Notes: generated by a model from the sequence alone, not told the origin. DNA of 64,000 nt from Chloroflexota bacterium (GCA_036845725.1 DAIUDK010000004.1:519-64518), one strand, 5' to 3'. Counted from the first letter of the stretch, positions 33,950 through 64,000 are shown. A program made the numbers and translations.

Positions 33950-35892
33950 TGTTCGTCGCACGGGAGAAAAGCATGAAGAAAGAGGAGATCTCGAGTCAAG
34001 AGACGGTTGAAATATTGGAGCAGATGATACCGTGGCGACAGAGCCTGTTTGAACGTCTTCTGCGCGTGGTGGCAATTGTCGGTTTGCCGTTGGCGCTGGT
34101 CGGTGTGTACTACGCTCTGGCTGTCGAGCAAACCAGCTACTTGTTTCTGATGCTGATATCCTACTTGCTTATCGTCGCAGCCGCTTTTTTCCCGCGTGTT
34201 CCTTACGTCTGGCGCGTGTGGGGATTGCTCGGGGCGTTGAGCGTTCTGGCGACGGTTGATTTATGGTTCTATGGCTGGGGTGAGGACGGTCGAATTTATC
34301 TAATCACGGCCATTCTTTTTGCCACTCTTTTCCTGGGCGGACGTCATAGCTTGGCTATGTTGATTCTCTCCGTGGCGATTGTTGCCCTGTTTGTCGCATT
34401 GTTTGCTTTGGGTGTGGAGATGCCGCAGCCTTATCTGGCCACGCCCGCTACGTTGATGCCGTTGGTGAGTGGGCTAGTTGTCTTTACCGGGTGTGTGACG
34501 GCCTTGTTTATCTCCTTCAACAATCTTCTTCCGCGTATCTTTGCTAATCTACAGCGCAGCGCGCAGCTCTCCGCCGATTTGGAGGCACGCCAGGAAGAGC
34601 TGGCTGGGCGGATGCGCGTGTTGCAGGACTCCAACCTCGGTTTGCAGCGGCAGGCAATGTACATCGACGCTGGGGTGCAGGCGACGCGCGGCTTGATGCA
34701 ACACTTTGAGGTCGAACCGTTGTTGGAGCGGGCTGTGCAGCTTATCAGCCGGCATTTCGATTTCCCCCACGTCGCGATCTTCCTGCCAGATGAGACCGGC
34801 ACATCGCTTGTGTTGCGCGCGGCCTCTTCATCGGGCGGGCAGAAGCTGGTAGCTCAGGGGTATCGCCTCAAACGATCCGCTCAAAGTGCTCTGGGACGCG
34901 TCCTTGAAACACGGCAGCCCCATATTGCCGGGTTGAACATCGGGATGCTAGATGCCGATTTCGATGTCGCGCACCTGGCACAGCCTGGCTTGCCGCCCGC
35001 GCGTTCGGCAGCGTTGCTGCCGTTGGTCGTCGCGGGTGAGGCTTTGGGCGTCTTGGACATTCACAGCCACGAAGAAGCGCCTTTCGATCAAGATAACCTC
35101 CGGGCACTGGAGTCGGTGGCCTGGCAGGTCGCTGTAGCGCTCGACAACGCGCGGCGCTTGAGCGGCGAGGACTCCGTCCTGGCGATGGCGAATCCGTTTT
35201 TCCGTTTGACGCAGCAGGTGGGGATGGCGCACACTGCAGCGGAGGTGCACACCGCGATTTTGCGGTTTGTCCAGGCATTCTATCCAGGACACGCCTACAT
35301 CGTGGAGGAAACCGAAAGCAAGCGCGAAACCGCGTACCGCGTCACCGACTTGCGCGGGGAGTCGCTGCACGTGCAGCAGATCGCCGAGGACAGCGCCGCA
35401 GAGAACTTCGGCGCGGCCTGGGCGCTGGGGATGGCGCTGGAAACGCCGTTGTTTATCGCCGATGTCAGCGCCCCACCGGATTTGCCGGAAACCGGATGCG
35501 CCGATTTCTGCCGGCGTCTGGTCGAAGACCCGACGTTTGCCGGAGAACATCACAGCGTAGCCCTGATTCCGCTGCGCGCCGGCGAGACATTCTTTGGTTT
35601 GGTGACCATTTTCTACGACGCTGCACACCCCAGCACCCCCTTGGAAATGCAAATCTACCGCGCCATCGAGGATTTCGGCGGTGTGATGTTGGAAAGGATT
35701 GCGTTGCTGGATGAGACGCAGACACGATTGTCGCAGGAGCGCTGGTTGCGCGAGTTTAGCGAGCGCATGCTGCAAACATCGGATCTGGAAATGATGTTGG
35801 CGGAAGCCGCACGGTCGCTCCAGGATGTTGCATACGCTGATGGTGTGACTGCTGCGCTGACTCCGCCGGAAGCGCACACCGGAACCCGTTGA
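33946..35892 (+). CDS. Kinase-less receptor 1: multi-TM, GAF, second degenerate GAF, terminal half-GAF segment
   Basis: About 6 hydrophobic segments; LISRHFDFPHVAIFL...ALGVLDIHS GAF; ends ERWLREFSERMLQTSDLEMMLAEAARSL. Confidence 0.8.
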   Translation: MMFVAREKSMKKEEISSQETVEILEQMIPWRQSLFERLLRVVAIVGLPLALVGVYYALAVEQTSYLFLMLISYLLIVAAAFFPRVPYVWRVWGLLGALSVLATVDLWFYGWGEDGRIYLITAILFATLFLGGRHSLAMLILSVAIVALFVALFALGVEMPQPYLATPATLMPLVSGLVVFTGCVTALFISFNNLLPRIFANLQRSAQLSADLEARQEELAGRMRVLQDSNLGLQRQAMYIDAGVQATRGLMQHFEVEPLLERAVQLISRHFDFPHVAIFLPDETGTSLVLRAASSSGGQKLVAQGYRLKRSAQSALGRVLETRQPHIAGLNIGMLDADFDVAHLAQPGLPPARSAALLPLVVAGEALGVLDIHSHEEAPFDQDNLRALESVAWQVAVALDNARRLSGEDSVLAMANPFFRLTQQVGMAHTAAEVHTAILRFVQAFYPGHAYIVEETESKRETAYRVTDLRGESLHVQQIAEDSAAENFGAAWALGMALETPLFIADVSAPPDLPETGCADFCRRLVEDPTFAGEHHSVALIPLRAGETFFGLVTIFYDAAHPSTPLEMQIYRAIEDFGGVMLERIALLDETQTRLSQERWLREFSERMLQTSDLEMMLAEAARSLQDVAYADGVTAALTPPEAHTGTR

Positions 35893-35895
35893 GCA

Positions 35896-37620
35896 ATGGA
35901 TGGAAAAGCTATGAGTGAAAGACAAGAACGCATATATCCTGTAGAAGTCCGCCAATGGCAACGGCAGTTGCTTAACCAGGTCTTGCGGATCGTGTTTGTT
36001 ATCACTGTCCCGCTGTTGTTGATTGCGTCTTACTACGTGTGGAGAGATGGGCATGCCTGGCTCATTCCTTTCTATGGGGTCGGATTCCTGCTCGTGGTCG
36101 TTGTACGGTTCTGGAAGAAAGCCCCGTACACCTTGCAAACCGGCGTATTATTGACGATTGTCTACGGCCTGGCGGTGCTTGCGCTGTTGCGGGCCGGGTT
36201 GAGTAGCAATGCGTCGCTCTTCCTGCTGGGGTTCGCCTTCATGGCGACAATTTTCCTGGAACGACGCGCAGCACTGATCAGTATCGCTGTGGTGGTTATC
36301 ACTATGGGGATTGCCGGTTGGCTGTTCTCTGCCGGAGTCTTGACCATCCCTGACGATATTCAGTTGTTATCGGACAAACCGGCCGCCTGGCTCAGTTACA
36401 CGTTTACACTCTTGTTGGCCAGCACATTCTTTGTGGCCTCACAACTTTTCTTGTTTCCGCGCCTTGCCGAGGCGTTAGCCAAAAGCCAGGAGATGGCACG
36501 CGAAATTGCCGAGGATCGCGAGCAGGTGGTACGGGAGGCGGAAACCAAACATCATCGCGCGGAGCAGTTAGGCTGGGTTGCTAATCTGGGCAACGTGCTG
36601 GCTTCGTTGCGCCAGCGTGACGATTTGATTTGGCGGGTTGTACGCGAAATCGCACAGACCTTCGATGTCTATCAAACCAATTTGTTCCTGATGAATCGCT
36701 CTGGTGATGCGCTGCTGTTAGCGGCAACTGCCGGGCAACTCGGCGAGGACATATCCCGCTTAGGAACGGCGGCGGTGACCGACATCCCTGTCGGGGCGCG
36801 AATTGCACCGGGACGGGCGGCGCAGTTGGGGAAAGAGCAGATGGCGCTTCTGTCTGACTCAACGGCGTTGTCTGGACAACTGCCCCAGTTTCCTGATAGT
36901 AACGTGGAGATCAGTCTGCCATTGAGCGTGCTCGGCGAAATCTTGGGTGTGCTCGATATCCACAGCACACATACTGCTTTCTCTGATGACGAACTGCATA
37001 TTTTTCGCATCATCGCCAGCCAGGTGACGACCGCTCTCGATATGCTGCGTTCGTTGGAGGAGACGCGGGCGCAAATGCAAGAAATCCGCGCGCTGTATGC
37101 TCAACACACGTTGGCTTCCTGGCGCACCTTGCTGGAAGCGGCTCCTGTGCAATCCATTATGGGCACACAAATGGTCGGTCCGAAGGTACAGGCGCTGGCG
37201 CAGGAGACAATGCGGAAAAAGCAGCCACGTTCGACCTGGCTCGATGCTGAGGGTGTTTATCTGTTGACTGTGCCTCTGGTGTCGCACGATGTCGCAGTGG
37301 GATACCTGGCTTTTACGCGTGCCGCCGAAAAAGGCGATTGGGATGCCGTGACCCGCAATCTGATTGCGATGGCGGCGGAACGGCTGGCCGTGACGTTGGA
37401 CAACACCCGCCTGCTTATCGAGGCACGGCGGCAGGCGCTCTATGACGAGCAGCTTGGCCGGCTCGACGATCTGATTTGGCAGACGCCGAATCCCGAGGCC
37501 ATTATGGAGCGGAGTGTGCGGGAGTTGGGGCGCTTCCTGGGCGCGCATGAGGTACAGTTGTATTTGACCCCGTCTGCCGAGCAGGGCGAGAGCACGATCG
37601 AACGTGCGGGAGATGTCTGA
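35896..37620 (+). CDS. Kinase-less receptor 2: multi-TM, GAF, C-terminal module
   Basis: Membrane domain paralogous to those of 33946 and 62398; EILGVLDIHS GAF; ends NPEAIMERSVRELGRFLGAHEVQLYL. Confidence 0.8.
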   Translation: MDGKAMSERQERIYPVEVRQWQRQLLNQVLRIVFVITVPLLLIASYYVWRDGHAWLIPFYGVGFLLVVVVRFWKKAPYTLQTGVLLTIVYGLAVLALLRAGLSSNASLFLLGFAFMATIFLERRAALISIAVVVITMGIAGWLFSAGVLTIPDDIQLLSDKPAAWLSYTFTLLLASTFFVASQLFLFPRLAEALAKSQEMAREIAEDREQVVREAETKHHRAEQLGWVANLGNVLASLRQRDDLIWRVVREIAQTFDVYQTNLFLMNRSGDALLLAATAGQLGEDISRLGTAAVTDIPVGARIAPGRAAQLGKEQMALLSDSTALSGQLPQFPDSNVEISLPLSVLGEILGVLDIHSTHTAFSDDELHIFRIIASQVTTALDMLRSLEETRAQMQEIRALYAQHTLASWRTLLEAAPVQSIMGTQMVGPKVQALAQETMRKKQPRSTWLDAEGVYLLTVPLVSHDVAVGYLAFTRAAEKGDWDAVTRNLIAMAAERLAVTLDNTRLLIEARRQALYDEQLGRLDDLIWQTPNPEAIMERSVRELGRFLGAHEVQLYLTPSAEQGESTIERAGDV

Positions 37621-37660
37621 TTGATGGGGGCTTTCTCTTGAGTGGAGAGGGGCATTGCCG

Positions 37661-40246
37661 ATGAACTTATCTCCGGGAATCGATATTTTACAACTTATCA
37701 CCTGGCTGTTTGCGCTGATCGAGCTGATCCTGGCGGGATATACGCTGGCGCTCAACGCCCGCCACAGCGCCAACCGCCACGTCAGCGTCTTGTTGGTGCT
37801 GCTGGCGATAAATAATATTGCCATGGGGCTGCTTGTCGCCGCCGACAGTGCCGATCAAGCGTATATGCCGACCTATTTGTTTGCCGCTATCGTGTATCCT
37901 ATTCTGCCCGCCGCAGTGCTCGCCGCCGTCGCGTTGCTCAAACCGGCCTGGCTGACGGGACGGTGGCGCTGGTTCTGGCGGATGTGTTATGTGGTCCTCG
38001 TGCTCCCGTTGCTGGTCACAGCGATAGACATCGGATTGGGGCAGCGATTGTGGTACCTGGGTCTCGATCCGAAGACCTATACCGGCGGCTATGTGCCGAT
38101 GAAGGAGTATGTATCTCCGGTACTGTACCCGGTGGTTATCTTCCTTCATGGCTTTGTTATGGGCTTGCTGCCACTCGTCCCTGCGATTGCTACACTACGT
38201 GACAAACAGGCTGTGGATGAACCTCTAGCCCTTGCTAGACGCCGGTGGGCGTGGATGATCGTCGGAGCCACACTCATCGCCGCCACCGTGCAGGCTGTTT
38301 TGACCGAGATGTTGAACCCTATGCTCAGGACGGCTCTCGTTTCCCTCATTTACGCGGGTGTCTACGTATACATCGCCCTGGCGCAAATGTTTATGGAACG
38401 GCGCCTGCAACGCGGATTGTTACGCCACCGGCTGACCGCGTTGTTTCTGGCCATCGCGATGCCTGTGATGCTCCTTAGCGTGACGTTGGTGGGCTTGCAG
38501 GCGCGTACGCTGCTGCAACGCAGCGCCACACGACGTCTGAGCGCAATCGCCCACCTGCTGGCCAATGGGGTCAATTTGCAGGACGAACTGACAACACAGA
38601 CCCTGCAGGAATTGCTGCGCATGGCGGTGGTCGAATTGGGGGATACCGGCCAAATCTACGTTGTGGATCAGAACGATCGCGCAGTGGTGCATACGGACAT
38701 GGACTTCACGTTAGTTGCTGAGGACAGCGTTATGCGCGATTTCAGCCAGCAAGCGCCGGTCCAGGCGTTGCGTCGTGGACAGGCTAACCGGCTGCTCATT
38801 TTCACCGATAAGGAAGATATCCATTGGTGGGCGTATACGACGGGTATTGGGGGTCAGGGCTGGGCCGCTGTGGTCCAGCAGCATGAAACCGTCGTGGCAC
38901 AGGATATGCAGCGTTTTATGACATTGTCGTGGGTGATTATCGCTATTGGTGCAGCCCTCCTGTTTGTTGTGGGATTCCTCACCATCCAACAGGCTTTGCT
39001 GCCGATTGTATCTTTGACCGAGACCGCCAAGGCCATCGCCGCCGGCGACTCGACCCGCGTGGCCGTTGTCGAGAGTGAGGACGAAATCGGCATGCTGGCA
39101 GAGGCATTCACCGCAGTGACGGGGCGGTTGAATGAGTTGATCGGCAATCTGGAGACGCGGGTGGCCGAGCGCACGCAGGAGGTCGAGCGTCGTGCTGAAT
39201 ATCTGGCGACGACCGGCGGTCTCAGTCGGGTGGTAGCGTCGATTTTGGATGTGGAAACGTTGCTCGACCGTGTGGCGCATCTCATTTCAGAGCGGTTTGG
39301 CTTCTATCACACCGGCATCTTCTTGATCGACGGTGCTCGTGAGTGGGCCGTGCTGCACGCGGCCTCTTCGGAGGGGGGCATGCGTATGCTGGCGCGCGGA
39401 CATCGCCTGCGGGTCGGAGAGCAGGGCATCGTGGGGTACGTCTCAGGCTCGGGCCGCGCGCGCATCGCGCTAGACGTCGATGCGGATGTGGTGTGGGTGC
39501 GGAATCCCGACTTGCCCGACACACGCTCGGAAATGGCGCTCCCGTTGATCTTTGGGCAGGAGATTATCGGCGTGCTCGACGTGCAGAGTGAAGTTGAAGC
39601 GGCGTTTGGTCCTGAAGACATCGCCACGCTGCGCATCCTGGCTGACCAGATAGCAGTCGCGCTGCGCAACGCGCAGTTGTTCGCCGAAAGCCAGCGAATG
39701 TTGCGCGAACTACAGCGTTCGTATGATGAGGAAATCCAGCAGGGTTGGGCGCTGCGCGCGTCGCCCGTTGTTGGCTATCGCTACAGGCCCTCAGATGTTG
39801 CGCCGCTGACACGCGCCGCTGTGCCCCCGGCAGACGCAAGTGCGCTGGCAGCCTCGGCGCCTTACGTGGATGCGACCAATACGCTCTGCGCGCCGCTGCA
39901 ACTGGTCGGCGGTCAGAACTTCGGCCTGTTGCGTCTCTCTCGCGATCCGGCGCAGCCGTGGACCAGCTACGATGTGACGTTTGTATCGCGCGCTGTGCAG
40001 GACATCGCGCAGGCGCTGGAAGTAGCCCGGTTGCTTGAGGATAGCCGCCTGCGTGCGTTACGCGAGGCGCAAGTTGGCGAAATCGCGGACCTGTTTACGC
40101 GTGCGTTGGACGTCGATACGATTTTGCAAACTGCCGTGCGCGAATTGGGACGGTTGTCCGGCGTCGCCGAAGTCGCCGTACATCTCGACTTCCCTGAATC
40201 ACTTTCAGAGTTGGGCGCGACGGAGCGCACATTCCGGCCGGCATAG
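37661..40246 (+). CDS. Kinase-less receptor 3: 7TM (HisKA_7TM-like), Cache, HAMP, GAF, C-terminal module
   Basis: LNARHSANRHVS N-terminus; SEDEIGMLAEAF HAMP; ERFGFYHTGIFL...NPDLPDTRSEMALPL GAF; ends LDVDTILQTAVRELGRLSGVAEVAVHL. ORF is open from TTG 37655. Confidence 0.85.
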   Translation: MNLSPGIDILQLITWLFALIELILAGYTLALNARHSANRHVSVLLVLLAINNIAMGLLVAADSADQAYMPTYLFAAIVYPILPAAVLAAVALLKPAWLTGRWRWFWRMCYVVLVLPLLVTAIDIGLGQRLWYLGLDPKTYTGGYVPMKEYVSPVLYPVVIFLHGFVMGLLPLVPAIATLRDKQAVDEPLALARRRWAWMIVGATLIAATVQAVLTEMLNPMLRTALVSLIYAGVYVYIALAQMFMERRLQRGLLRHRLTALFLAIAMPVMLLSVTLVGLQARTLLQRSATRRLSAIAHLLANGVNLQDELTTQTLQELLRMAVVELGDTGQIYVVDQNDRAVVHTDMDFTLVAEDSVMRDFSQQAPVQALRRGQANRLLIFTDKEDIHWWAYTTGIGGQGWAAVVQQHETVVAQDMQRFMTLSWVIIAIGAALLFVVGFLTIQQALLPIVSLTETAKAIAAGDSTRVAVVESEDEIGMLAEAFTAVTGRLNELIGNLETRVAERTQEVERRAEYLATTGGLSRVVASILDVETLLDRVAHLISERFGFYHTGIFLIDGAREWAVLHAASSEGGMRMLARGHRLRVGEQGIVGYVSGSGRARIALDVDADVVWVRNPDLPDTRSEMALPLIFGQEIIGVLDVQSEVEAAFGPEDIATLRILADQIAVALRNAQLFAESQRMLRELQRSYDEEIQQGWALRASPVVGYRYRPSDVAPLTRAAVPPADASALAASAPYVDATNTLCAPLQLVGGQNFGLLRLSRDPAQPWTSYDVTFVSRAVQDIAQALEVARLLEDSRLRALREAQVGEIADLFTRALDVDTILQTAVRELGRLSGVAEVAVHLDFPESLSELGATERTFRPA

Positions 40247-40261
40247 CGTGGAGATATCATT

Positions 40262-42352
40262 ATGAACGATGACGAAGGGCAAGTGCTTACTCACAAAACT
40301 TCTACCTACCAGAAAGTTCGACCGGCTATAGGGATCGTGACCCATCGGATTTCCGGTGCGACGGCCTGGTGGCTCGGCGCAGCAGAGATGGCGCGGCAGC
40401 AGAACGCTGATGTGTTTATCCTGAATGCTGGCAATGTGGGTGCGGAGGGCGGCATCGCGGATGACCTCCCCGATGCAGTGCATCATCTGATCGATCCGGA
40501 GCGCCTCGACGGGCTGGTTTTGGTGCAATGGTGGCCCAGCCGCCAGATTTTTGAAACCTTCTACAATCGCTATTACCGTCCCTTGCCGGTGGTGAATCTG
40601 CACCGTAACTACGAAGGCTATCCCGGCGTTACGGTGGACAACTATCAAAGCATGATGACTCTGTTACGCCATCTGATCGAGGTGCATGGATACCGCCGCC
40701 TGGCCTTCATCGCTGGACCGCCAGATAATCCCTCTGCCGACATCCGGTATGCGGCCTATGTTGCGGTGTTGGCAGAATACAACATTCCCCTGGACGAAAA
40801 CCTGGTTCTCCCTGGGGATTTCTCGTCGCCAGCCGGCGCCAACGCTGTGCGCATGCTGCTGGATGAGCGCGGCATGCAGCCCACACGTGATTTTCAAGCC
40901 ATCGTCGCCGCGAATGACTATATGGCGTTGGCAGCGCTGGAGGAGTTGCATCGACGGGAGATTCGCGTGCCCCTGGATGTAGCGTTGGTGGGATTCGATG
41001 ATGTGGGCGAGGGCGCTTATACGATGCCGTCTGTTACCACCGTGCGTATGCCTAACTTTGCAATGGGCCGCATGGCAACTCAGACCTTGCTGGCAGTCAT
41101 CAAAGAGCAGCCAGTTGGCGATTATGTGATGGTGCCTGGCGAATTGGTGCTGCGCCAATCGTGTGGCTGTTTCGTGTCTCCGCTGGCCGATGTCGGTGAG
41201 GCGGCCCAGTTGCTTGGGCCTGGCGGCCCGCCCGCAGGTATGGCTGGCGGCCCGCCCGCAGGTATGGCCGGTGGTCCGCCCGCAGGTATGGCCGGTGGTC
41301 CGCCCGCTGTGCCTTCACCGGAACAACGTATGCGCGCTATCACCGAATTATCGAAGAGCGTGGAACCGGCAGGGCAAGTCCTTGGCGCTGATTGGGCTTC
41401 GAACATGGTTGAGGCCTTTACTACGGTGATCGCCGCCTCTCCGGATGACTCGAAAGCCCCAACTATGCGATTATTAGGTGAGCTTTACGAAATCCTGCGA
41501 CAATTGCACCTCAATGGCTACGATTTGCTTGCACTGGGGCGGAAAATCCTCTTCGTGCTGCGTCGTACGATGCAACCCACGTTGACCGGGATGCAACAGA
41601 TGCGACGCGCTGAATCTGTGTGGCAACAGGCAATGGCTTTTGTCACCGACGTAGCCCATCAAATGCAGTTCTCACAACAGTATTATGGTGCGAGTTACAT
41701 CGACCAGTTGCGCGTCATTGGTGAGCGCTTGATCACAACCTTTGAGTTGACCGGATTGCTTGATCTGATTGCGCGTGAATTGCCACGTTTGAATATTCCC
41801 GGTGTCTATATTGCGCTGTACACGGATTCCACACGACAACTCGCGCGGCTTGTGCTGGCCACAAATACAGATGGCCGCAATCCCCAGGGCGTTGAAGGTC
41901 AGGTTTTTCACGCGCGCCAACTGCTGCCAGATAGCTTGTTCGCACATACTCAGCCTACAGTGCGGCTGGTTGTCCCGCTGTACTTTCAGGAAACAGCCCT
42001 GGGTTTTACCCTTTTCGAGGTCGGGCCAGAGCAGGGCGAGATCTATGAAACGCTTGGACGCCAGATCAGCAGTGCGCTGATGGGAGCGTTGTTGGTGCAG
42101 CAGCAGGAGGAAGCGCAGCAGGATGCTGACATCGCGCGCCAGCGAGCGCAGGCAGCTTTGAGTGACCTGTTGACCACGCGCGCGATCAGTGACCGTGTAC
42201 GTCAGGCGACGGATACCGAGGCAATCCTGCGGCTGACGCTCGAATCGTTGAATCAGGCGCTCGGGGCCTCGGTCGGGATGGCGCGTTTGGGGACGCGTGA
42301 GCAACTGCTGGAAATAGCCGGCATCGCGCAGGGTGATGCCAGGTCGAGCTAG
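40262..42352 (+). CDS. Kinase-less receptor 4: HTH-less LacI-type ligand-binding domain, helical region, degenerate GAF, terminal half-GAF segment
   Basis: VDNY..M...HLIEVHGYRRLAFI, AANDYMA, VALVGFDD, LRQSCGC; ends AISDRVRQATDTEAILRLTLESLNQALG. Confidence 0.85.
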   Translation: MNDDEGQVLTHKTSTYQKVRPAIGIVTHRISGATAWWLGAAEMARQQNADVFILNAGNVGAEGGIADDLPDAVHHLIDPERLDGLVLVQWWPSRQIFETFYNRYYRPLPVVNLHRNYEGYPGVTVDNYQSMMTLLRHLIEVHGYRRLAFIAGPPDNPSADIRYAAYVAVLAEYNIPLDENLVLPGDFSSPAGANAVRMLLDERGMQPTRDFQAIVAANDYMALAALEELHRREIRVPLDVALVGFDDVGEGAYTMPSVTTVRMPNFAMGRMATQTLLAVIKEQPVGDYVMVPGELVLRQSCGCFVSPLADVGEAAQLLGPGGPPAGMAGGPPAGMAGGPPAGMAGGPPAVPSPEQRMRAITELSKSVEPAGQVLGADWASNMVEAFTTVIAASPDDSKAPTMRLLGELYEILRQLHLNGYDLLALGRKILFVLRRTMQPTLTGMQQMRRAESVWQQAMAFVTDVAHQMQFSQQYYGASYIDQLRVIGERLITTFELTGLLDLIARELPRLNIPGVYIALYTDSTRQLARLVLATNTDGRNPQGVEGQVFHARQLLPDSLFAHTQPTVRLVVPLYFQETALGFTLFEVGPEQGEIYETLGRQISSALMGALLVQQQEEAQQDADIARQRAQAALSDLLTTRAISDRVRQATDTEAILRLTLESLNQALGASVGMARLGTREQLLEIAGIAQGDARSS
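41222..41308 (+). repeat. 24-bp in-frame tandem repeat encoding GGPPAGMA x3.6
   Basis: gg(c/t)gg(c/t)ccgcccgcaggtatggc(t/c) at 41222, 41246 and 41270, partial at 41294. Confidence 0.9.
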
Positions 42353-45300: not shown

Positions 45301-45603
45301 CGGTTTGATGAACCACAGGTTCCTGCAGAAGCCGTTGAACTGGTGGAACAGGTCGCAGCCCGTCTGGGGGCAGCATTGGAAAGCGCCCGCCTGTTGGAGG
45401 AATCGCGCCGTACCGCTACCCGTGAGCAGATTGCGGCCCAGGCCATCAGCGGGATGCGCGAGCGTCTGGACGTCGAGGCGGTGCTGCGGAACGCTGCGCG
45501 GGAACTGCGTGATGCGCTCGATCTGGCGCGGGTGTCGGTACGTCTCGCGCCGCGTTTCGAATCCGCCGATAAGCCGGGGAACGGCGACGCGCCCGTTGTG
45601 TAA
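42361..45603 (+). CDS. Kinase-less receptor 5: LacI-type domain, degenerate GAF, module, GAF, module
   Basis: RPTIGLL, AANDDMA, VRRSCGC; ERFDLYYAGIFL GAF; ends LDVEAVLRNAARELRDALDLARVSVRL. Confidence 0.87.
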   Translation: MGRQKRTREISSPDTARETDARPEAKRRPTIGLLVGETNSWWGQSLLQGVTDAAEMFDVDLICYVISSLREKDVPRGNAIYALVNADLLDGAIISGNIAYAVRPDTFSDYVDSLRTTIPLIGVVMAHEGVPSVLVDGYSGMYDNIKHLIEVHGCRRLAFIRGPVGNFDADERYRAYTTLLEEYGIPYSPDFVEVSNFSAGRTAMETLWARIQAVPRDAEDTSPWAVIAANDDMAVQAMTLLREYDVRVPEDIIVVGFDDSVAAQNLDVPLTTVRQPTQEIGQRAMQMVLQLLRGEPVEEIAEVPAELVVRRSCGCLPGAVTQIPVEAQIELIDKPLPAFPGVPAPMWEAFLAGVRGSSADNFLILLDQALREARNTEGRITNWHHLLTEMRRHTLTYLGDLTARHRAEDLLQQARLLVGDAERRQEAYRRQLIQQQETLLGQIDNTLSTILHLQELALALNGLFPRIGIDCCFVSLYENEDPLAENARLLFEYDIYRPGDSPKVELHTESPWFSPPQLIPRQTLFEERRRTVLVLPLTLQTHQLGFAVVWGGQYWRLYTRLTQRLSDVIFRALLALEQERAQREAQAAERRAEEALRDVLVAQRRYIQGAWQERAGLVPGFEYSDEKRGISDTVWIPEMGVAVQRGDVVLEHDLDGGQTMAVPVMLYGEEIVGALAFKTTDAMPWTEDHVTLVRTIATEMALALETQRLFSDVQRRASRLLAAAEISRVTTSILTLDELLPQAVDLIRERFDLYYAGIFLADDSQRWAILRAGTGEAGRVMLARNHRLEVGGSSMIGMCVSQGEAHITFDTRHEALYRRNPLLPDTRSELALPLFSRGRVIGAMTIQDTRPGAFTQEDITTLQTMADQLANAIENARLLRRMEQGMHELELATGQLTQESWRNFLENYRQSFGYRYRLVDVEPVTDPSPEAQVALQQQKTVATTVRLSPTVEVDEETGRVQGVLSVPIRVRNEVLGVLNLRFDEPQVPAEAVELVEQVAARLGAALESARLLEESRRTATREQIAAQAISGMRERLDVEAVLRNAARELRDALDLARVSVRLAPRFESADKPGNGDAPVV

Positions 45604-56800: not shown

Positions 56801-58101
56801 TGGCGTCGGGAGAAAGTGTCATCGACAAGGAAGAGGCGGCAGTTGATCAAACTACAGGCGAAAAGTTGTGGGTATCCACCACGAAGATTCCTCTGCGCGA
56901 TGAGGCTGGACATATCACCGGTTTTGTGGGGATGACCTACGATATTACAGATCGCAAGCGTACAGAAGTCGTACTGCGGCGGCGCGGCCGGCAACTCCAG
57001 GCGGTTGCCGATGTGGCACGGATCGCGACTGAGGTGTTGGATATTGACACCTTGCTTCAGCAGAGCGTAGAGCTGTTGCTTGAACAACTGGAATTGTATT
57101 ACGCAGGTCTGTTCCTGGTGGATATGACAGCCACCCCGGCCGAGTTTTCCAGTGCGGTGCAGCGGAAGCAGGCCGTGCTCCGCGCTGCAACGGGGCGGGC
57201 CGGTGCGGAAATGGTTGCGCGCCGGCATCGCCTGGAGGTCGGCGGCAGCTCGATTATTGGGCAGTGCATCGCGCAGGGGGAAGCGCGCATCGCGTTGGAT
57301 GTGGGCGTTGCCCCTGTGCGCTTCGAGAATCCGCTGTTGCCGGAGACGCGCTCAGAGCTGGCGCTGCCGCTTAAGAGTCGCAGTGGGGTCATCGGCGCGT
57401 TGACGCTCCAAAGCAGGGAATCCGCTGCATTTTCTCAGGAAGATGTCACGGTTCTTCAAGCGTTGGCCGATCAGTTAGCCAATGCCATCGAGAACATCCG
57501 TTTGTTTGAACAAACCCAGCGCGCCTTGCGTGACTTGGAGATGATCCAGCAGCAATATGTACGCGAGGCATGGAGTGGGCAGAAGGCATCGACGGTGCTC
57601 ACCGATTACGAGATGACACTCCCCGGTATAACGCCTTTACGCGATGCGCGTGGCATATGGGCTTCGTTGCCTGAAGTCCAGGAGGCGTTGACCCGGCAGA
57701 GCACCGTGGTTGTATCGGGGCGTGACGCGCGGGATGTGGATCACGCAGCTCTGGTTGCACCGATCCAATTGCGTGACCAGGTCATCGGCACATTGGGCAT
57801 CCACGATGAGGATCGAGCGCGGAAATGGACCGACGATGAGATCGCGCTGGTTGAAACGGTCGCCGAGCGCATGGGTATCGTCGCCGAAACGTTGCGCTTA
57901 CTCGAAGAGACCCAACACCGCGCCGCGCGCGAACGTCTGACGCGTGAGATCACCGATCAGATCCGCGGGGCGCTCACCGTCGATGAGGCGATACAACGTG
58001 CGTTGCAGCAATTAGGCCAGACGTTGGAGGCCGACATGCTGGCGCGTATCGATGTCGGACAGGGGAAGATTTCCGCTGCACCGGAAGGGAAGGAAAAATG
58101 A
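53848..58101 (+). CDS. Kinase-less receptor 9: LacI-type domain, degenerate GAF, GAF, PAS, PAS, GAF, C-terminal module
   Basis: VRQSCGC; two PAS domains ending ISRDITERK and MTYDITDRK; two copies of the conserved GAF. Start at ATG 53848. Confidence 0.88.
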   Translation: MAKQSRRAGGSSSRKKTAGAPASTQRRLTLGFFVDRLTTGYHNAIWQGVEAQARVRDVNLLCFVGGSLHNQPHSDDMNNVLYGLPDKALLDGLIFAAGSLGTRVNQEKLQAFCERYRPLPMASIAMPLTDISSVLIDNDYGMREMMLHLVDVHGYRRIAFFHRQEGHLENDARYEAYVAVLAERGIAVDPDLVISGTHYSTPETGIRLLFDERQLRPRIDVEALVAHDDRVALEILGILQARGIRVPDDVAVVGFDDIEDSRYAIPTLTTARQPLREQGRQAVELVLAQLQGATVPPQVNLRTQLVVRQSCGCLDATVLQAESRLQPEMPAEPCASFPAAMATRREALLSDMVGVLAAESLSDDANAAIRARVVRLVDAFVEATQDETVASAEVFLRVLDDLMRQTLLEQGDVSAWQNGLSVLRAHALTCVMEGTSAQRIEGLLQQARVQVGSAAQQAQARQRLQTAQREGVLREIDQVFVSAGMLDDLLNAMLYGLPQLDIPSFYLSMYAGLEASQETPTPSTLAQLVLAFDRTRGLEQKSKQRYPMRDVLPPEVLPGDRRYSLVIELLHFRNEHLGKVCFEVGPREGAIYDMLRMQISSALQGVLTTERLAGRALQLQTAAEVSRTASALLDTDDLVQQVVTLVRDRFSLYYVGLFLVEPDPQDPAVQWAVLKAGSGEAGKRMVEEGHRLQVGGTSMIGWCVANREARIALDVDRDTVRRPHLLLPDTRSELALPLISRGDVVGALTIQSTQEAAFSPEDISILQTLADQLANAITNARLYEALEYEQYLMNVLMDNFPDQIYFKDRESRFIRVSRSQTERFGLSDPADAIGKTDFDFFTEEHARPAYEDEQRIIRTGEPLLNLEERETWEDRPDTWVTTTKMPMRDHKGNIFGTFGISRDITERKNTEIQLSADRNLLRTLIDNLPNYVYIKDRQSRFLINNIAHLGLLGARTQEEVIGKSDLDIFPHELASQYYADEQALMASGESVIDKEEAAVDQTTGEKLWVSTTKIPLRDEAGHITGFVGMTYDITDRKRTEVVLRRRGRQLQAVADVARIATEVLDIDTLLQQSVELLLEQLELYYAGLFLVDMTATPAEFSSAVQRKQAVLRAATGRAGAEMVARRHRLEVGGSSIIGQCIAQGEARIALDVGVAPVRFENPLLPETRSELALPLKSRSGVIGALTLQSRESAAFSQEDVTVLQALADQLANAIENIRLFEQTQRALRDLEMIQQQYVREAWSGQKASTVLTDYEMTLPGITPLRDARGIWASLPEVQEALTRQSTVVVSGRDARDVDHAALVAPIQLRDQVIGTLGIHDEDRARKWTDDEIALVETVAERMGIVAETLRLLEETQHRAARERLTREITDQIRGALTVDEAIQRALQQLGQTLEADMLARIDVGQGKISAAPEGKEK

Positions 58102-59453
58102 TGAACAGGCAATCGTCACCGGTTGAGATAGATCAAGTCTTTGCCCGGCGTCTGCAGGTAGCGCGAGTCATCATGTGGGTTTCGGTGGCAGCAACAGCCT
58201 TGCCCCTGGTTGTTTTAGCAATCAGGCTGATCAGAGCGCCATATTCTGCAGATACTTATATCCTGTTGGCGATGGTTTTGTTGTTCCTGTTTCTTAGTAG
58301 CATCGGGCTAAGGTTGATCCGTCGCCAACAACTGTATCGCGCCATTATGGTTTACCTACCCGGGTTGGTCATGAGTCTGACAGTCATCCTCTATTTTCTT
58401 GGGGGTGTCACTGGACCAGTGACATTGGGATTTATCGTCGGGGGGGTGATTGTTGGATTGATTGGGGGAGTCAAACCCTTGCGTTACGCCTCGATCCTCA
58501 TGAGCGTTGTCTATTTGACGATGGCGGCTCTGGAGATTACCCAGATACTGCCCCCGCAGCCCATAGCCGATACCATGCGTTGGCCACTTGAAGTCTTTCT
58601 CTTCCTAAATGCACTGGGCGTGACAGCCGTGGTGTCAGGGGGATTCATTCTCCAGACCGAGCGGTCGATTGATGCAGAGCGGCAGCGTAGCTTTGAACTG
58701 GTCGAGGCCAGTCGTCAGGCCGAGCAGTTAGCGATAGCCGAGCGTGAATTACGTGAACGAGAAGCGTACTCAGCGGTGCATCTTCGTGAAACCGTGGCCG
58801 GATACGCGGATTATTTGTCTCGTGTGGCGGCCGGGGATTATACGGCGCGTTTGGATGTCGGCGTGTTGGAAGAGAATGTCGAAGGGGACAGCGAATTGCA
58901 CGCCCTGGGCGAGTACCTCAACACGACGGTGGATGCGCTGGTGGCGGCGCTGACTCAGTCTCAGGAAGTGCAGCGCCGCTATGCGGAGCAGAGCTGGCAA
59001 ACCGTCGTGCAGTCAGGCCGTGTGCAGCCGGGATTCGCCTACCGGCAAAATCAGATCACGCCGGAGGCGGAGTGGCTGCCGCAAATGACGCGAGCTGTGG
59101 ACAGTGGAGCACCAGTGGCCGAGGGTGAAGGCGCTGCTGTCCCGCTGGTCATTAACCGGCAGATCGTCGGCGCGATTGGTGGGCAGCATCCCGATGGCCG
59201 GCCCTGGACTGAGGAGGAACTATCCTTGATCGAGGCCATCACCGGGCAACTCGCGCAGACCATCGAGAGCTTGCGGCTGCTGGACGATGTGCAGCGGCGG
59301 GCGGTGCAAGAGCGATTGGTTGGCGAGGTCACCTCGCGAATGCGCGAGTCGCTCGATATGGAGACTGTGCTCAAGACGGCGGCTAAAGAAATGCGACACT
59401 CGCTTGGATTGGACAAAATCACCATCTATCTGGGAATGTCCTCAGAAGAGTGA
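58098..59453 (+). CDS. Kinase-less receptor 10: multi-TM, HAMP-like, C-terminal module (no canonical GAF)
   Basis: About 6 hydrophobic segments; VAAGDYTARL...LHALGEYLN HAMP-like; ends LDMETVLKTAAKEMRHSLGLDKITIYL. Confidence 0.8.
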   Translation: MMNRQSSPVEIDQVFARRLQVARVIMWVSVAATALPLVVLAIRLIRAPYSADTYILLAMVLLFLFLSSIGLRLIRRQQLYRAIMVYLPGLVMSLTVILYFLGGVTGPVTLGFIVGGVIVGLIGGVKPLRYASILMSVVYLTMAALEITQILPPQPIADTMRWPLEVFLFLNALGVTAVVSGGFILQTERSIDAERQRSFELVEASRQAEQLAIAERELREREAYSAVHLRETVAGYADYLSRVAAGDYTARLDVGVLEENVEGDSELHALGEYLNTTVDALVAALTQSQEVQRRYAEQSWQTVVQSGRVQPGFAYRQNQITPEAEWLPQMTRAVDSGAPVAEGEGAAVPLVINRQIVGAIGGQHPDGRPWTEEELSLIEAITGQLAQTIESLRLLDDVQRRAVQERLVGEVTSRMRESLDMETVLKTAAKEMRHSLGLDKITIYLGMSSEE

Positions 59454-59537
59454 TGGTGTGTGCGCAAATGTTCGCGCGTCTGTGAATAATCGCGCGTTCG
59501 CAATGTGGCGAAAAGGATTATAGGGAGAACGAATACT

Positions 59538-62381
59538 ATGGCAGAATCTCAACCAGCTGGACGTCCGCAGCGTAATAGGGCAGCCGATGGTCGTCTGACT
59601 ATTGGATACCTTGCGCCGGCTCTCCATGAAGACAGCCAACCACAATGGCTGGGTGTGGTAGATGCCGCCCAGGAACAGGACGTGAATTTGATTTGCTTTC
59701 CCGGCGCTACGCTGCGCACCTCACCCCGTTCCCCGGAGCAGGCTAATATCCTCTACGATTTGGTCGGTGCAACCAGTGTGGATGGTTTGGTGAGTTGGGC
59801 TTCTTCCATCGGCAACTCTGTGACTGCCGACGAGATTGAGGTCTTCCACAGACGTTATCATCCTCTTCCGGTGGTGGCGATTGGGCGAGCGTGGGAAGGA
59901 CTCCCGGGTTTGTCGATGGAGAGCTATCACGGCATGTATGAAGCGGTGACACACCTGATCGAGGTTCACAACTGTCGCCGGCTGGCGTTCATTCGCGGTC
60001 CAGAGAACCACGTACAGGCCCAGTCGCGCTATCAGGCCTATCTGGACGCGCTAAAGGCCCACAACCTGCCTGTCGATCCGCTCCTTATCACTCCACCATC
60101 AGAAAACTGGGCGCGTAGTTGGGGCCCAAAAGCGATATACCTCTTGCTTGATGAGCGCCAGTTGCATCCTCCGACTGACCTGGATGCAATCGTGGCTGCT
60201 AACGACGGCCTACTCCTGGGGGCGCTGCCTAGCCTGCACGCGCGGGGCATTGAGGTTCCCGACGACCTGGCTGTGGTCGGATTCGACGATTCGCTGCACA
60301 GTCGCGTCAACACCCCGTCATTAACGACCGTTGCCGCGCCCTATTACGCCCTGGGCCATCAGGCTGTAGAGGCAGTGTTGGCCTTGTTGGAAGGGCGGGA
60401 AGTTCCCCCGGAAACTTTGATGTCGGCCCAGATGGTTCTCCGCCAGTCGTGTGGTTGCCTGGATCCGGTGGTCGCGCAGGCTAAACTGGAATTAGGCGAA
60501 TCGGAAGATGCGACGCTGCTGTCCATTCTCAGTTCCCGCCGGGCTGGGATTGTCGCAGCCTTGGAGCAGGCCCTGAACAATACCAATGAGGCCGTTCGGG
60601 GTAGCATAGAACGGCTTTTGAACACTCTTGAGGGTGAGTTGACCGGCGAGACGCCGGGGCTTTTTATCCCCGAGCTGAACAGAGCCTTGCGTCAAACTGT
60701 GATGGCTGGCGAGGATGTAGCGGTTTGGCAGGGTGTGATATCGGCATTGCGGCATCAAATGCGTATGTGTGCGCACGAGCAGGCGTTCTTAGTGGCCGAC
60801 GACCTTTGCCAACAGGCGCGCATCGTCATTGGCGAGGCGTCACAACGCACACAGGCATACCGGCATGTGCAAATGGAGCAACGGGCGCTTGCCCTGCGTG
60901 AGATTGGTACGGAATTGCTCAATACCTTCAATGTTCAAGGTTTGATGGATGCATTAGCCCGGTCATTGCCCGATTTGAACATTCCGAGCTGCTATCTATC
61001 CTTGTATGAAGCCGCGCAACCATATCAATATCCTCAGTCTCCGCCCGAATGGGCCAGATTAGTGCTTGCCTACAATGAAAAGGGCTCTATCACTCTAGAT
61101 GCAGAGGGATATCGTTTTCCTGCGCGTCAACTGATGCCCGTTGAGATGTGGCCGTCGGGACGGCGTTACAGCTTTGTTGTCCAACCGCTCTTTTTTCAGA
61201 ACAGCCAGATCGGATTGGTATTGTTCGAGATGGGGCCGCGCGAAGCCGATGTCTACGACACCTTGCGTTTACAGATCAGCAGCGCGTTACAGGGAGCAAT
61301 GCTAATTGGCCGTGTGGAGAAGCGCGCGTTGCAGTTTCAGGCAATCACTCAGGTTTCACAGACCACCAGCAGTATCCTGGACCTCGATGCGTTGACTCAA
61401 CGGGTTGTAGACGTGATACAAGAGCGGTTCGATTTGTACTACGTTGGCCTGTTCTTGACCGACCAGACCGGTGAGGAGACGGATGTGTCGAGTCGCTGGG
61501 CTGTGCTGCGGGCTGGTACAGGTGAGGCCGGGCGTGAAATGATCGAGCGCGGACACCGGCTGGAGATTGGCGACACTTCTATGGTTGGTTGGGCCGTAGC
61601 TCACAAACAGGCTCGTATCGTACTGGACGTAGGACAGACAGGGGAGGTCGCGCGATTCGATAACCCGCTCTTACCAGACACGCGTTCAGAGATGGCGTTG
61701 CCACTCATCAGCCGTGGTACAGTTATCGGTGCGCTAGATGTGCAAAGTGTTCGTCCCGAAGCGTTTGGTGATGAAGACGTCGCTATTCTGCAAACTATGG
61801 CCGACCAGGTTGCGTTGGCAATTGGCAATGCATTGCTGTTCCAGCAAGTTCAGGATAGCCTGGAAGCGGAGCGCCGGGCATATGGCGAGTTAAGTCATGA
61901 AGCGTGGCGAACATTGCTGCAGACAGGATCGGGCATGAGTTATGTCTGTGACGAATATGGCCTCTCGCCGGCGGAGGCGCCCCCCGAGCCGCATATGTAC
62001 AAGGCCGTGCAGACAGGGACCTCTGTCATTGCTGCCGATGATGAGCAGGCTGTGGCTTTGCCGATCAAAGTGCGCGATCAGGTTATCGGCGTTATCAATG
62101 TTCATAAGCCACAAGAGGGACCATGGTCGAGAGAGCAAATCACACTTGTGGAGACCCTGACGGAACAACTGGGCGTGGCCCTGGAAAGCGCCCGGCTGTA
62201 TCAGGACACGCAACGCCGCGCGGCGCAAGAACAATTGATTGGACAGGTGACCGCGCGCGTGCGCGAATCGCTCGATGTCACCACGGTGCTGAAAACAGCT
62301 GCGCAGGAGATCGCTCGCTCGTTTGGGCTGGCGGCGCTCGATGTGCGGTTGACGCCACCGTCGTCAACGGAACAGTCGTGA
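59538..62381 (+). CDS. Kinase-less receptor 11: LacI-type domain, degenerate GAF, GAF, C-terminal module
   Basis: AANDGLL, LRQSCGC; ERFDLYYVGLFL GAF; ends LDVTTVLKTAAQEIARSFGLAALDVRL. Start at ATG 59538. Confidence 0.87.
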   Translation: MAESQPAGRPQRNRAADGRLTIGYLAPALHEDSQPQWLGVVDAAQEQDVNLICFPGATLRTSPRSPEQANILYDLVGATSVDGLVSWASSIGNSVTADEIEVFHRRYHPLPVVAIGRAWEGLPGLSMESYHGMYEAVTHLIEVHNCRRLAFIRGPENHVQAQSRYQAYLDALKAHNLPVDPLLITPPSENWARSWGPKAIYLLLDERQLHPPTDLDAIVAANDGLLLGALPSLHARGIEVPDDLAVVGFDDSLHSRVNTPSLTTVAAPYYALGHQAVEAVLALLEGREVPPETLMSAQMVLRQSCGCLDPVVAQAKLELGESEDATLLSILSSRRAGIVAALEQALNNTNEAVRGSIERLLNTLEGELTGETPGLFIPELNRALRQTVMAGEDVAVWQGVISALRHQMRMCAHEQAFLVADDLCQQARIVIGEASQRTQAYRHVQMEQRALALREIGTELLNTFNVQGLMDALARSLPDLNIPSCYLSLYEAAQPYQYPQSPPEWARLVLAYNEKGSITLDAEGYRFPARQLMPVEMWPSGRRYSFVVQPLFFQNSQIGLVLFEMGPREADVYDTLRLQISSALQGAMLIGRVEKRALQFQAITQVSQTTSSILDLDALTQRVVDVIQERFDLYYVGLFLTDQTGEETDVSSRWAVLRAGTGEAGREMIERGHRLEIGDTSMVGWAVAHKQARIVLDVGQTGEVARFDNPLLPDTRSEMALPLISRGTVIGALDVQSVRPEAFGDEDVAILQTMADQVALAIGNALLFQQVQDSLEAERRAYGELSHEAWRTLLQTGSGMSYVCDEYGLSPAEAPPEPHMYKAVQTGTSVIAADDEQAVALPIKVRDQVIGVINVHKPQEGPWSREQITLVETLTEQLGVALESARLYQDTQRRAAQEQLIGQVTARVRESLDVTTVLKTAAQEIARSFGLAALDVRLTPPSSTEQS

Positions 62382-62397
62382 CGGGTGTGGATAGGAG

Positions 62398-64000
62398 ATG
62401 ACTATGGAGCAAGAGCACATAACACAATCCAATAGACCGCCATCTTCCGGTAGACCGTCATCTTCCGGACAGAACACTGCCTCGGCAGCGCTGAGTGATA
62501 GTCTGGCGCTTTGGCGGAACGACCTTACCAAGACGGCGCTACGCGCCACTCTGGTAGTTGGACTGTTTGCCGTTTTGATGGGGAGTTATACAGCTTATCG
62601 GGTGGGCAATCTTATTGCGATCCCTCTCTACGTGGTTTTCTATTTGCTGGCGCTGGCTTTTACTTTTTGGCGCGGTATACCTTACGTACTACAAACCTGG
62701 CTGATCATTGGCTTGTTCTATGTTATCGGTGTCTTCGAGACGTTGAACACGGGGCGTACCGGCGATGGCCGTATTCTATTGCTGGCTTTTGCACTGATCG
62801 CTGCGTTGTTCTATGGACGCCGCGCCGGCTTGGTGGCGATTGGGTTAAATGTGTTGACGTTGTTTGCCTTTGGGATGGCATTTTCCAATGGCTGGCTGCG
62901 TGTCTTTTCGCTGGAGCGCCAGGCTGTTTCCATTGACTTTTTCCCGTGGGTTAGCAATGCCGGAGTCCAAACGATGGTGGGGGTTCTGTTGATTCTGGGC
63001 TATGATTTTTTGCTTACGCGGTTTTCTCAGAATATTGCGAACGGACAGGGGTTGATCGGCGAATTGCAGATGCAGACCCAGTTGTTGAAGTCTCGGGAAT
63101 TCGAATTGGCGCAGCGTAACATGCAGTTGCAAGCCGCGGCGCAAATTGCGCGCGAGACCACCGCCATCAGTAATGAAGAGCTACTGTTAACCAGGTCTGC
63201 GGACTTGATTGTAGAACGGTTTGGTTATGCCTACGTTGGTTTATACGTTCTAGGCTCGAACGGGGAGCACTCTAACATTGAACGCGCGACTTTGAGAGCT
63301 GTTGCTGGTGATCCGCAGTTACAGGTAACCGGGGAAGAGATGTTCAGTGAGGCGTCACTGGTGGGGCGTGCAATTCGTCAAATGACTGTGCAAACAGACA
63401 ATTCAGAGGATGCGGACGTGGTTTTGGCTGGGGAACGGGGGGCCGCAGCGCAATCCGACTTGTACGCGGGGATCGCTCTGCCCATGGTGATCCAAAGCCA
63501 TGTCATTGGGGCTTTGGAGGCACGTGTGGCCGGGCGACGGGCGTTTTCGGCAGATGAAATTGAGGCCTTGCAGACGTTAGTGGATCAGATTGCTGTTGCC
63601 CTTAGCAATGCGCGTCTGCTTACGCAGGTTCAGGCAAATCTGGATGCAGTGCGACAGACCGTGGGAGAAACCAGTAGTCGCGCCTGGCAGGAGTTTTTGA
63701 TCGCCCAGACTGGATTGGCTGAACGGTATGATCCTGACCGACTATTGCCTCCCGTTGACCAATGGCTGCCGGAACTCGACCTGGCGATACAAAAGAGGAC
63801 GCCACTTATCAACCAGGATGAGACTTCGGCACAACTGGTGGTTCCTATTCAGGTACGCGGGCAGGCTATTGGGGCAATTGATGCTCGCAAACTGACAGGA
63901 GGGGAGTGGACCTCGACGGAGATTGAAACCATGCAGACCCTGGTGGATCAGTTGGGTGTGGCTTTGGAAAGCGCCCGGCTGTATCAGGACACGCAACGTC
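62398..64000 (+). CDS. Kinase-less receptor 12 (3'-truncated by the window edge; absent from the ORF track): multi-TM, GAF, C-terminal module
   Basis: Manual translation from ATG 62398 (RBS AGGAG): MTMEQEHIT...WRNDLTKTALR...GIPYVLQTW...GDGRILLL...ERFGYAYVGLY...AWQEFL...VVPIQVRGQAIG...LGVALESARLYQDTQR; no stop seen in the translated stretches. Confidence 0.85.
   Translation, partial: MTMEQEHITQSNRPPSSGRPSSSGQNTASAALSDSLALWRNDLTKTALRATLVVGLFAVLMGSYTAYRVGNLIAIPLYVVFYLLALAFTFWRGIPYVLQTWLIIGLFYVIGVFETLNTGRTGDGRILLLAFALIAALFYGRRAGLVAIGLNVLTLFAFGMAFSNGWLRVFSLERQAVSIDFFPWVSNAGVQTMVGVLLILGYDFLLTRFSQNIANGQGLIGELQMQTQLLKSREFELAQRNMQLQAAAQIARETTAISNEELLLTRSADLIVERFGYAYVGLYVLGSNGEHSNIERATLRAVAGDPQLQVTGEEMFSEASLVGRAIRQMTVQTDNSEDADVVLAGERGAAAQSDLYAGIALPMVIQSHVIGALEARVAGRRAFSADEIEALQTLVDQIAVALSNARLLTQVQANLDAVRQTVGETSSRAWQEFLIAQTGLAERYDPDRLLPPVDQWLPELDLAIQKRTPLINQDETSAQLVVPIQVRGQAIGAIDARKLTGGEWTSTEIETMQTLVDQLGVALESARLYQDTQR

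Follow-up and report, generated by a model that had tools for sequence, protein, structure and literature searches.

Signal relay by sensors that lack an output domain is poorly understood. Here we describe a long array of such receptors in a 64,000-nucleotide (nt) stretch of DNA from a Chloroflexota bacterium (GCA_036845725.1 DAIUDK010000004.1:519-64518; this whole stretch is hereafter the window, and all coordinates refer to it), together with the small C-terminal element, the 'tip', in which these receptors end. On the plus strand, from 30.7 kilobases (kb) to the window edge, a single dense Anaerolineae-type gene array with intergenic gaps of -17 to +80 nt encodes two REC-only response regulators, one histidine kinase and then 12 co-directional receptors, R1-R12 (33946 to beyond 64000). 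Judged by sequence comparison, the tip (~45 amino acids (aa)) is a truncated GAF domain of the phytochrome/cyanobacteriochrome type, of which α1, α2 and β1 alone remain. Its terminal position, its conservation, the bimodal scores of its hidden Markov model (HMM) and the pattern of its matches in a large protein library mark it out as a terminal variant, distinct and under selection, of a common junction motif.

The original prediction, made by a model from the sequence of the window, held that this half-GAF is completed in trans by another subunit or partner. On the evidence given below, the tip looks like a small self-contained α-α-β unit on the last signalling helix, not like a half-domain awaiting a sister GAF, and the interpretation that we favour, with moderate confidence, is that it is a GAF-derived two-helix dimerisation and protein-contact output cap coupling many sensors to one kinase. 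At issue are hundreds of output-less receptors, laid out in long arrays behind a single kinase in a widespread and little-studied phylum, which share one small and sharply conserved GAF-derived C-terminal element. If the tip is a contact surface, it would be a new GAF-derived interaction module of ~45 aa and would define an architecture of many inputs and one kinase.

A terminal element related to GAF N-termini

Alignment of the receptor tails bore out the common order originally described for nine complete receptors (R2, R3 and R5-R11). Each has a helix ending in a Trp, in the motifs LASW (R2), QQGW (R3), QESW (R5), REAW (R6 and R9), HEGW (R7), RQDW (R8), EQSW (R10) and HEAW (R11); the eight distinct motifs listed earlier thus stand for nine receptors, since REAW occurs twice. 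A short aromatic strand (GYRY in R3 and R5, GFAY in R10, GYIY in R7), a VPI..R..V.G.L hairpin, a W..EE..L.E....Q...ALE.ARL helix and the terminal RR.A.RE...R.SLD....L..A..E....L....V.V.L are all present in the alignment as well. R12 carries the same module, with the motif SRAW, up to the window edge, where it is cut. The Trp is the sole invariant column in an alignment of 124 sequences that includes homologues. R1 (33946-35892) and R4 (40262-42352), as had been noted, carry the tip directly behind a GAF-like domain with no Trp module, and Pfam places the HisKA domain of the kinase after its GAF, at the position equivalent to the receptor module.

The likeness of the tails goes far beyond chance, and their homologues are numerous. 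A query with the R11 tail returned 306 of them (best E = 8e-78), none named beyond 'GAF domain-containing protein', and 368 coding stretches matched in a pattern scan that took one genome for each GTDB species, those listed all belonging to Anaerolineae, Thermoflexales or other Chloroflexota metagenome-assembled genomes. A tail-HMM search of the six-frame open reading frames (ORFs) of 71 sources, comprising 70 fetched loci and the window, gave 396 full Trp+tip modules across the 71 sources and tip-ending ORFs in 70 of them. Nearly all of these modules (394) lie in ORFs that end with a stop codon, which follows HMM position 183, the end of β1, at a median of 8 aa (95th percentile 38 aa). In 48 further proteins the tip comes directly after a full GAF without a Trp module. 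The tips found in 69 related Anaerolineae/Thermoflexales loci and the window number 434. The claim that the tip is the invariant element therefore stands: ~97% of Trp+tip modules are terminal, the stop codon being no more than a few dozen residues away, and full GAFs that have no such module are followed by the tip as well.

Over 361 non-redundant tails, each column of the junction and tip helices carries 2.5-3.0 bits of information, compared with 1.67 in the core of the Trp module and 0.58 in the residues that trail the tip, and this conservation indicates purifying selection on the tip. The tip is strongly conserved among homologues, so that the outcomes named beforehand as fatal to the original prediction (poor conservation among orthologues, or a self-contained ordinary GAF fold with no exposed conserved surface) were not found. 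Scores of a tip-only HMM are bimodal within the same ORF set, with a median of 69.6 bits for terminal tips (n = 434) against 5.4 bits for internal GAF N-termini (n = 123). When the tip profile was run against a representative library of 1.84 billion proteins, 10,889 proteins matched; the best hits were giant tandem-GAF proteins with a weak match at each inter-GAF junction, and high-scoring single matches were C-terminal. NCBIfam gave no family for the tail, and no description of the module was found in the domain libraries or in the literature searched on GAF circular permutation, MASE11, Anaerolineae/Chloroflexi GAF proteins or output-less sensors. Present domain libraries thus miss both the reduced GAF described below and the tip, leaving the proteins annotated merely as 'GAF domain-containing'.

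The assignment of the last ~50 aa to the first helix-helix-strand of a GAF domain also held up. With hhalign (E = 8e-5), tip columns 19-57 fall on columns 6-44 of the GAFs encoded in the window itself, and in a profile search of the Protein Data Bank (PDB) the tip matches the helix-helix-strand with which the GAFs begin in 8w26 (SyB-Cph1 GAF-PHY, residues 11-54) and 6oap (a dual-sensor histidine kinase, residues 100-182), with which it shares the motif …RA.RE.L…I…IR.SLD.E.IL.T.V.E.R..L…V.VY (31.6-44 bits). Pfam by itself misses the element, with 2 of 11 tips matching at E = 0.022. The receptor tails further resemble the junctions of phytochrome-type GAFs in the preceding hairpin, in the W..EE…ALE.A.LY helix and in an α5 that runs into the next α1. 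Unlike phytochrome-type GAFs, however, the chain ends 8-14 residues past β1, without the ligand-binding sheet; given the median of 8 aa between HMM position 183 and the stop, neither the β-sheet nor the ligand pocket of a complete domain is present. Terminal tips also differ from the N-termini of phytochrome-type GAFs in forming a separate, tightly conserved sequence class. Past the end of β1 comes a short acidic stretch (median 14 aa) in which Gly, Pro and Ser abound. In about nine exceptional proteins of the related loci, and in R5 of the window, the tip position runs on into a full GAF; locus L061 encodes a Trp module followed by a GAF and then by HisKA-HATPase-REC.

Fold and covariation of the receptor tail

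The Trp module that precedes most tips is itself a reduced GAF of ~100 aa, here called the mini-GAF. Residues 346-389 of R10 match positions 91-133 of the GAF profile (PF01590/PF13185) with 34.0 bits against a cut-off of 22.4, which covers just the C-terminal third of the profile. An AlphaFold2 (AF2) monomer model of the last 192 aa of R11, whose numbering (1-192) is used for all tails, was built on the 124-sequence alignment (model m3e0e0eee5858; predicted local distance difference test score (pLDDT) 86). It consists of a helix (2-41), strands 47-50 and 53-56, a helix (63-71), strands 83-90 and 93-101, helices 110-156 and 159-174 and an extended end, and gives the Trp module the five-strand sheet and flanking helices of a GAF fold. 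In a Foldseek search of the PDB with the mini-GAF part, all 50 of the 50 best matches were GAF domains, with a probability of ~1.0 for the best, an E of only ~4e-3 and TM-scores of 0.3-0.48. Of the complete GAF set (α1, α2, β1-β2, α3, β3, α4/lid, β4-β5, α5), the modelled mini-GAF has no α2 and no lid, and the Trp helix leads straight to a short β1-β2 hairpin of its own; the covariation of C49 with V100 fits the pairing of this β1 with β5.

In the same model, helix 110-156 (47 residues, straight) and helix 159-174 make a helical hairpin that continues the C-terminal signalling helix of the sensor. Of the elements of a GAF, the tip in this monomer prediction has only α1-α2-β1, in agreement with the original view of it as a truncated GAF, and its terminal segment is unpaired. 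The five-strand sheet of the mini-GAF already has a β1, which speaks against insertion of the terminal strand there. A model of the R4 tail, with its full GAF-like domain and tip, was based on just 8 sequences and has a pLDDT of 44-62 in the tip.

Mean-field direct coupling analysis (DCA) of 485 tails (effective number of sequences, Meff, 422) ranks C49-V100 first, a contact within the mini-GAF sheet of the β1-β5 kind expected for GAF. The top 100 pairs include 58 inside the tip, 27 inside the mini-GAF and a single one (R91-E143) that links the two; with the upstream complete GAF included, the top 100 comprise 47 tip-tip, 33 GAF-GAF and 1 GAF-tip pairs. The terminal strand is coupled to the tip's own helices: pairs between α2 and β1 (168-177, 170-180, 171-176, 166-178), between α1 and β1 (154-176, 157-179) and between α1 and α2 (151/153-162) all rank high, and in a run on a single subfamily the α2-β1 pairs, 154-176 and 153-162 persist. 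By comparison, couplings of the terminal strand to mini-GAF strands come no higher than rank 116 of 16471 with all tails, and no higher than rank 188 when the run is confined to one subfamily. Covariation does not distinguish contacts within a chain from those between chains, and within a family it is blind to an unrelated partner protein; the within-family result therefore disfavours insertion of the strand in a sister GAF sheet, in cis and in homo-oligomers alike. We also observed that an Arg in the turn between β4 and β5 of the mini-GAF (R91) covaries strongly with a Glu in tip helix α1 (E143), for which a kinked junction or a contact between chains may be the reason.

The tip as a candidate receptor output

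No kinase, cyclase, GGDEF/EAL, HD-GYP, methyl-accepting chemotaxis protein (MCP) or DNA-binding output was found in R1-R12 with Pfam and NCBIfam, and the kinase (31520-33949) is the sole enzymatic signalling protein of the array. The tip sits in the output slot of the receptors, because exactly the position of R4's tip is taken by an MCP signalling domain (P0276) or by HisKA-HATPase (P0277) in homologues of the R4 sensor domain. The R4 sensor domain itself (41645-42349) is GAF-like and has no Pfam match; since it recurs in these two proteins, fused to the MCP signalling domain and to HisKA-HATPase, it is a mobile sensor module.

Completion in trans, as originally predicted, would have the GAF elements of another subunit or a dedicated partner complete the tip, its strand entering a foreign β-sheet to yield oligomers or a docked complex. 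The tip is truly just GAF α1-α2-β1, its amphipathic strand stays unpaired in the monomer model, and its α2 consensus retains the broad hydrophobic face expected in a full GAF, but we consider such completion improbable. Insertion of the terminal strand in a neighbouring GAF sheet was not borne out: the β1 of the mini-GAF is in place and pairs with β5 in both the top-ranked coupling and the AF2 model, the strand covaries with its own helices and at best weakly with mini-GAF strands, and no pair between it and the strands of the upstream full GAF enters the top 100. Nor is a suitable acceptor apparent, as no GAF lacking α1-α2-β1 was seen in the window, where the GAF of a response regulator-GAF-cyclase protein (18051-19589) has its own, and the N-termini encoded downstream are periplasmic-binding-protein-like, MASE11, multi-pass membrane or (R6) a single transmembrane (TM) segment before dCache, none of them a GAF remainder. 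The related proposal that a missing remainder lies downstream, reached by frameshift or readthrough or held in the N-terminus of the next gene, was rejected in view of the gaps of -17 to +80 nt and of next proteins that start with binding-protein, MASE11 or TM regions. If instead the Trp module were a circularly permuted GAF without N-terminal elements, the tip could fold back in cis to supply them, and the R10 match to profile positions 91-133 alone, the lack of an α2 helix in the mini-GAF and weak couplings seen in the subfamily run only (L119-F174, R110-L145) would fit. This we regard as very improbable, and it was rejected: the straight 47-residue AF2 helix takes the tip away from the mini-GAF, the β1 slot is filled, a single tip/mini-GAF pair is found in the top 100, and R1, R4 and 48 other proteins carry this tip behind complete GAF-like domains.

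A doubtful but more serious alternative is that the tip is a passive structural cap, which just ends or stabilises the last helix or the dimer, with signalling occurring by other means such as HAMP/GAF heterodimers with the kinase or ligand sequestration. It is in keeping with the tip being a self-contained covarying unit, and with conserved residues that are largely those of phytochrome-type GAF N-termini, so that the conservation could be structural. Yet the tip is more conserved than the adjoining sensor core, its sequence class is sharply set apart from internal GAF N-termini, it stands exactly where homologues have transmitter domains, and the receptors have no other candidate output. The notion of a non-functional relic of tandem-GAF recombination, or of a gene-calling artefact, appeals to the origin of these tandem paralogues from repeated GAF units and to the similar internal junction sequences of giant tandem-GAF proteins; it is hardly credible in the face of 434 tips from 70 sources with the same truncation point and high information content, and of a next gene so close to the stop (-17 to +80 nt) that no frame has room for the missing ~100 aa.

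In the favoured reading of the tip as an output cap, its α1 and the α5 of the GAF or mini-GAF just before it would make up a single uninterrupted helix, α2 would fold back onto α1, and the short amphipathic β1 segment would rest in the groove between the two, followed by a presumably disordered acidic tail. In phytochrome-type GAFs, the N-terminal helices together with α5 form the helical bundle of the dimer interface. The tip would be well suited to a four-helix cap, formed by the two tips of a parallel dimer of GAF sensors, because just those N-terminal dimer-interface helices are kept. Because it occupies the HisKA/MCP slot and is the most conserved part of otherwise diverse receptors, the tip is probably their dimerisation and protein-contact output, through which a dozen or more membrane-bound and cytoplasmic sensors could act on the single kinase and/or the two CheY-like regulators. 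A docking or oligomerisation role for the tip is plausible.

Several points weigh against this interpretation. The terminal strand has no hydrogen-bond partner in the AF2 model, where confidence drops (pLDDT 65, then 45), and this leaves room for an external partner strand. The dense covariation within the tip may be inflated by subfamily structure, although the main couplings survive restriction to one subfamily, and the R91-E143 pair does not fit the straight-helix monomer model. The data show the homology of the tip, its truncation and conservation, its modular fold and the operon context; we infer the dimeric bundling, and with it the four-helix cap, as well as the partner and the direction of signalling; the basis for receptors feeding into the kinase is conserved gene order and tight spacing. 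The tip has no sequence similarity to DHp/HOS, and the comparison with HOS made below is an analogy only.

Known systems offer partial parallels. RpBphP1 ends in the HOS domain, a helix-turn-helix that makes up a four-helix bundle in the dimer and, once released, binds the repressor RpPpsR2 (PMC6899989). Like the tip, HOS replaces the kinase transmitter in a GAF-containing sensor, and by analogy the tip may share its four-helix bundle and its protein-protein output surface; HOS is a distant homologue of DHp, whereas the tip is a GAF N-terminus with an extra strand and no DHp similarity. The array also recalls the MCP hairpin with CheA, CheW and CheY, in that many receptors with diverse sensors share one conserved distal helical hairpin, one kinase and CheY-like regulators. 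The tip hairpin, however, has ~35 residues compared with a coiled coil of ~200, and the kinase is a classical membrane HisKA kinase; no receptor matches PF00015, which is carried by one distant homologue of the R4 sensor domain alone (P0276), and the ORFs scanned in the window yielded neither CheA nor CheW. With DHp (HisKA) the tip has in common a helical hairpin and the same place after GAF α5 as in the co-encoded kinase, but it differs in having no conserved His, no profile similarity and no CA domain. A degenerate DHp/HisKA, suggested by the H-box-like 'RMRETLD', was considered and rejected at the sequence level: hhalign against the DHp of 9 array kinases aligns just the preceding α5 end, and the tip has neither a Pfam HisKA match nor a conserved His. 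A more far-reaching version of the output-cap reading, possible but quite tentative, is that the tip is a common docking element by which output-less dCache, MASE11, 7TM and LacI-like sugar-binding sensors assemble and jointly control one kinase and two CheY-like regulators. This would be an undescribed Anaerolineae/Thermoflexales system that builds the logic of a chemoreceptor array from GAF parts without Che proteins.

Organisation of the array and other genes of the window

The original prediction gave the interval 35700-64000 for the tail module. The tails are indeed present there, but the array itself begins further upstream, at the first response regulator (RRa, 30703), followed by the second (RRb, 31116) and the kinase (31520). 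RRa (30703-31086, plus strand, as are all genes of the array) is a single-domain response regulator that heads the operon (Pfam Response_reg, 97 bits) and ends 29 nt before RRb (31116-31535; Response_reg, 72 bits), also a single-domain protein, whose gene overlaps the kinase start by 16 nt. The kinase (31520-33949) has the Pfam architecture TM-sensor-TM-HAMP-GAF-HisKA-HATPase. A HisKA+HATPase kinase thus adjoins the REC-domain regulators RRa and RRb, as in a two-component operon, and this layout is conserved in related loci.

The receptors have diverse N-termini, which are MASE11 in R1, R2 and R12, multi-TM plus HAMP in R3, dCache-HAMP in R6 and R8 (with a single TM segment before dCache in R6), six TM segments only in R10, and cytoplasmic LacI-type binding cores without a helix-turn-helix in R4, R5, R7, R9 and R11. 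GAF domains come next in all 12, with additional PAS domains in R9. From the end of the LacI-type core, around aa 315, to the first GAF, around aa 625, R5 (42361-45603), R7 (48052-50937), R9 (53848-58101) and R11 (59505-62381) have ~300 residues without a Pfam match or TM segment, which may be an undescribed linker or sensor domain.

By Pfam, R1 has the order MASE11-GAF-second GAF-like domain-tip, with the tip at 35704-35889 and no Trp module; the tail HMM matches it from position 79 to 189 at 35545-35877. The R4 tip (42140-42349), directly behind the GAF-like sensor domain, represents a slightly longer remnant (…ARLGTREQLL…). The remaining receptors end in a mini-GAF and tip. These tails lie at 37057-37617 in R2 (gene 35896-37620; tip 37411-37617; tail HMM 14-191, 101 bits), at 39644-40243 in R3 (gene 37655-40246; tip 40031-40243; HMM 1-188, 153 bits) and at 44959-45600 in R5 (tip 45391-45600; HMM 1-189, 146 bits). 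R5 has in addition an internal mini-GAF (44131-44652; HMM 15-187, 86 bits), where the 'tip' position runs on into a complete GAF and 316 more residues follow. The tails of R6 (gene 45684-48062) and R7 (gene about 48052-50937) are found at 47430-48059 (tip 47868-48059; HMM 1-190, 168 bits) and 50389-50934 (tip 50734-50934; HMM 2-189, 142 bits), and those of R8 (gene 50934-53864) and R9 (gene about 53848-58101) at 53202-53861 (tip 53640-53861; HMM 1-189, 194 bits) and 57469-58098 (tip 57898-58098; HMM 1-179, 138 bits). R10 (gene 58098-59453) is a minimal receptor of six TM segments plus the module (58947-59450; tip 59277-59450; HMM 162 bits). The R11 tail (61803-62378; tip 62196-62378) is the one modelled above with AF2 (top Foldseek matches all GAF), and in R12 (gene 62398 to beyond the window) the mini-GAF occupies 63583-63999, the window edge falling at the junction before the tip (HMM 1-138, 154 bits).

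The 69 related 20-kb loci are each filled by 5-10 co-directional tip-ending receptors. Where the start of an array is captured, it has the order REC-(REC)-histidine kinase-R1-type receptor, followed by more receptors. A full head of this kind is seen in L045, L048, L064, L065 and the window, and partial heads in L006, L023 and L049 (kinase, then R1-type) and in L008 (two REC, then R1-type); in related loci the kinase gene is always followed immediately by that of an R1-type receptor. Some arrays are interspersed with genes for ABC-type substrate-binding proteins. ORFs of ~310-355 aa lie amid the related arrays in L001 (11039-13175), L023 (16105-18254) and L045 (3468-4422 and 6479-7535), and the pair in L001 encodes ABC_sub_bind (PF04392) substrate-binding proteins, which may be ligand-presenting partners of the adjacent receptors. 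In a related genome, two independent contigs (L001 9125-10822, L002 133-1830) show one receptor divided between a MASE11 ORF of 260 aa and a GAF-Trp-tip ORF of 273 aa, which represents either a natural split or a shared frameshift.

Outside the array, the minus-strand gene at 18051-19589 encodes a response regulator fused to a very short GAF (~125 aa; Pfam profile positions 78-133 only) and an adenylate/guanylate cyclase domain. This short GAF lacks the middle of the domain and retains α1-α2-β1; the protein was considered as an acceptor whose own GAF is truncated and rejected, as its GAF has these elements and no cyclase was found in related loci. The region 63-10108 is probably a cell-surface gene cluster, with a 1471-aa protein of 11 FG-GAP and 8 PKD repeats (63-4478) and two paralogous proteins of ~870-890 aa (4527-7202 and 7502-10108) that have a C-terminal HYDIN/ASH-type Ig-like domain. 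A 633-aa ORF at 14457-16358 has no Pfam match and is of uncertain reality, since the other strand mirrors it with an ORF of 585 aa, and a 987-aa ORF at 27575-30538, also without a Pfam match, apparently encodes a multi-pass membrane protein.

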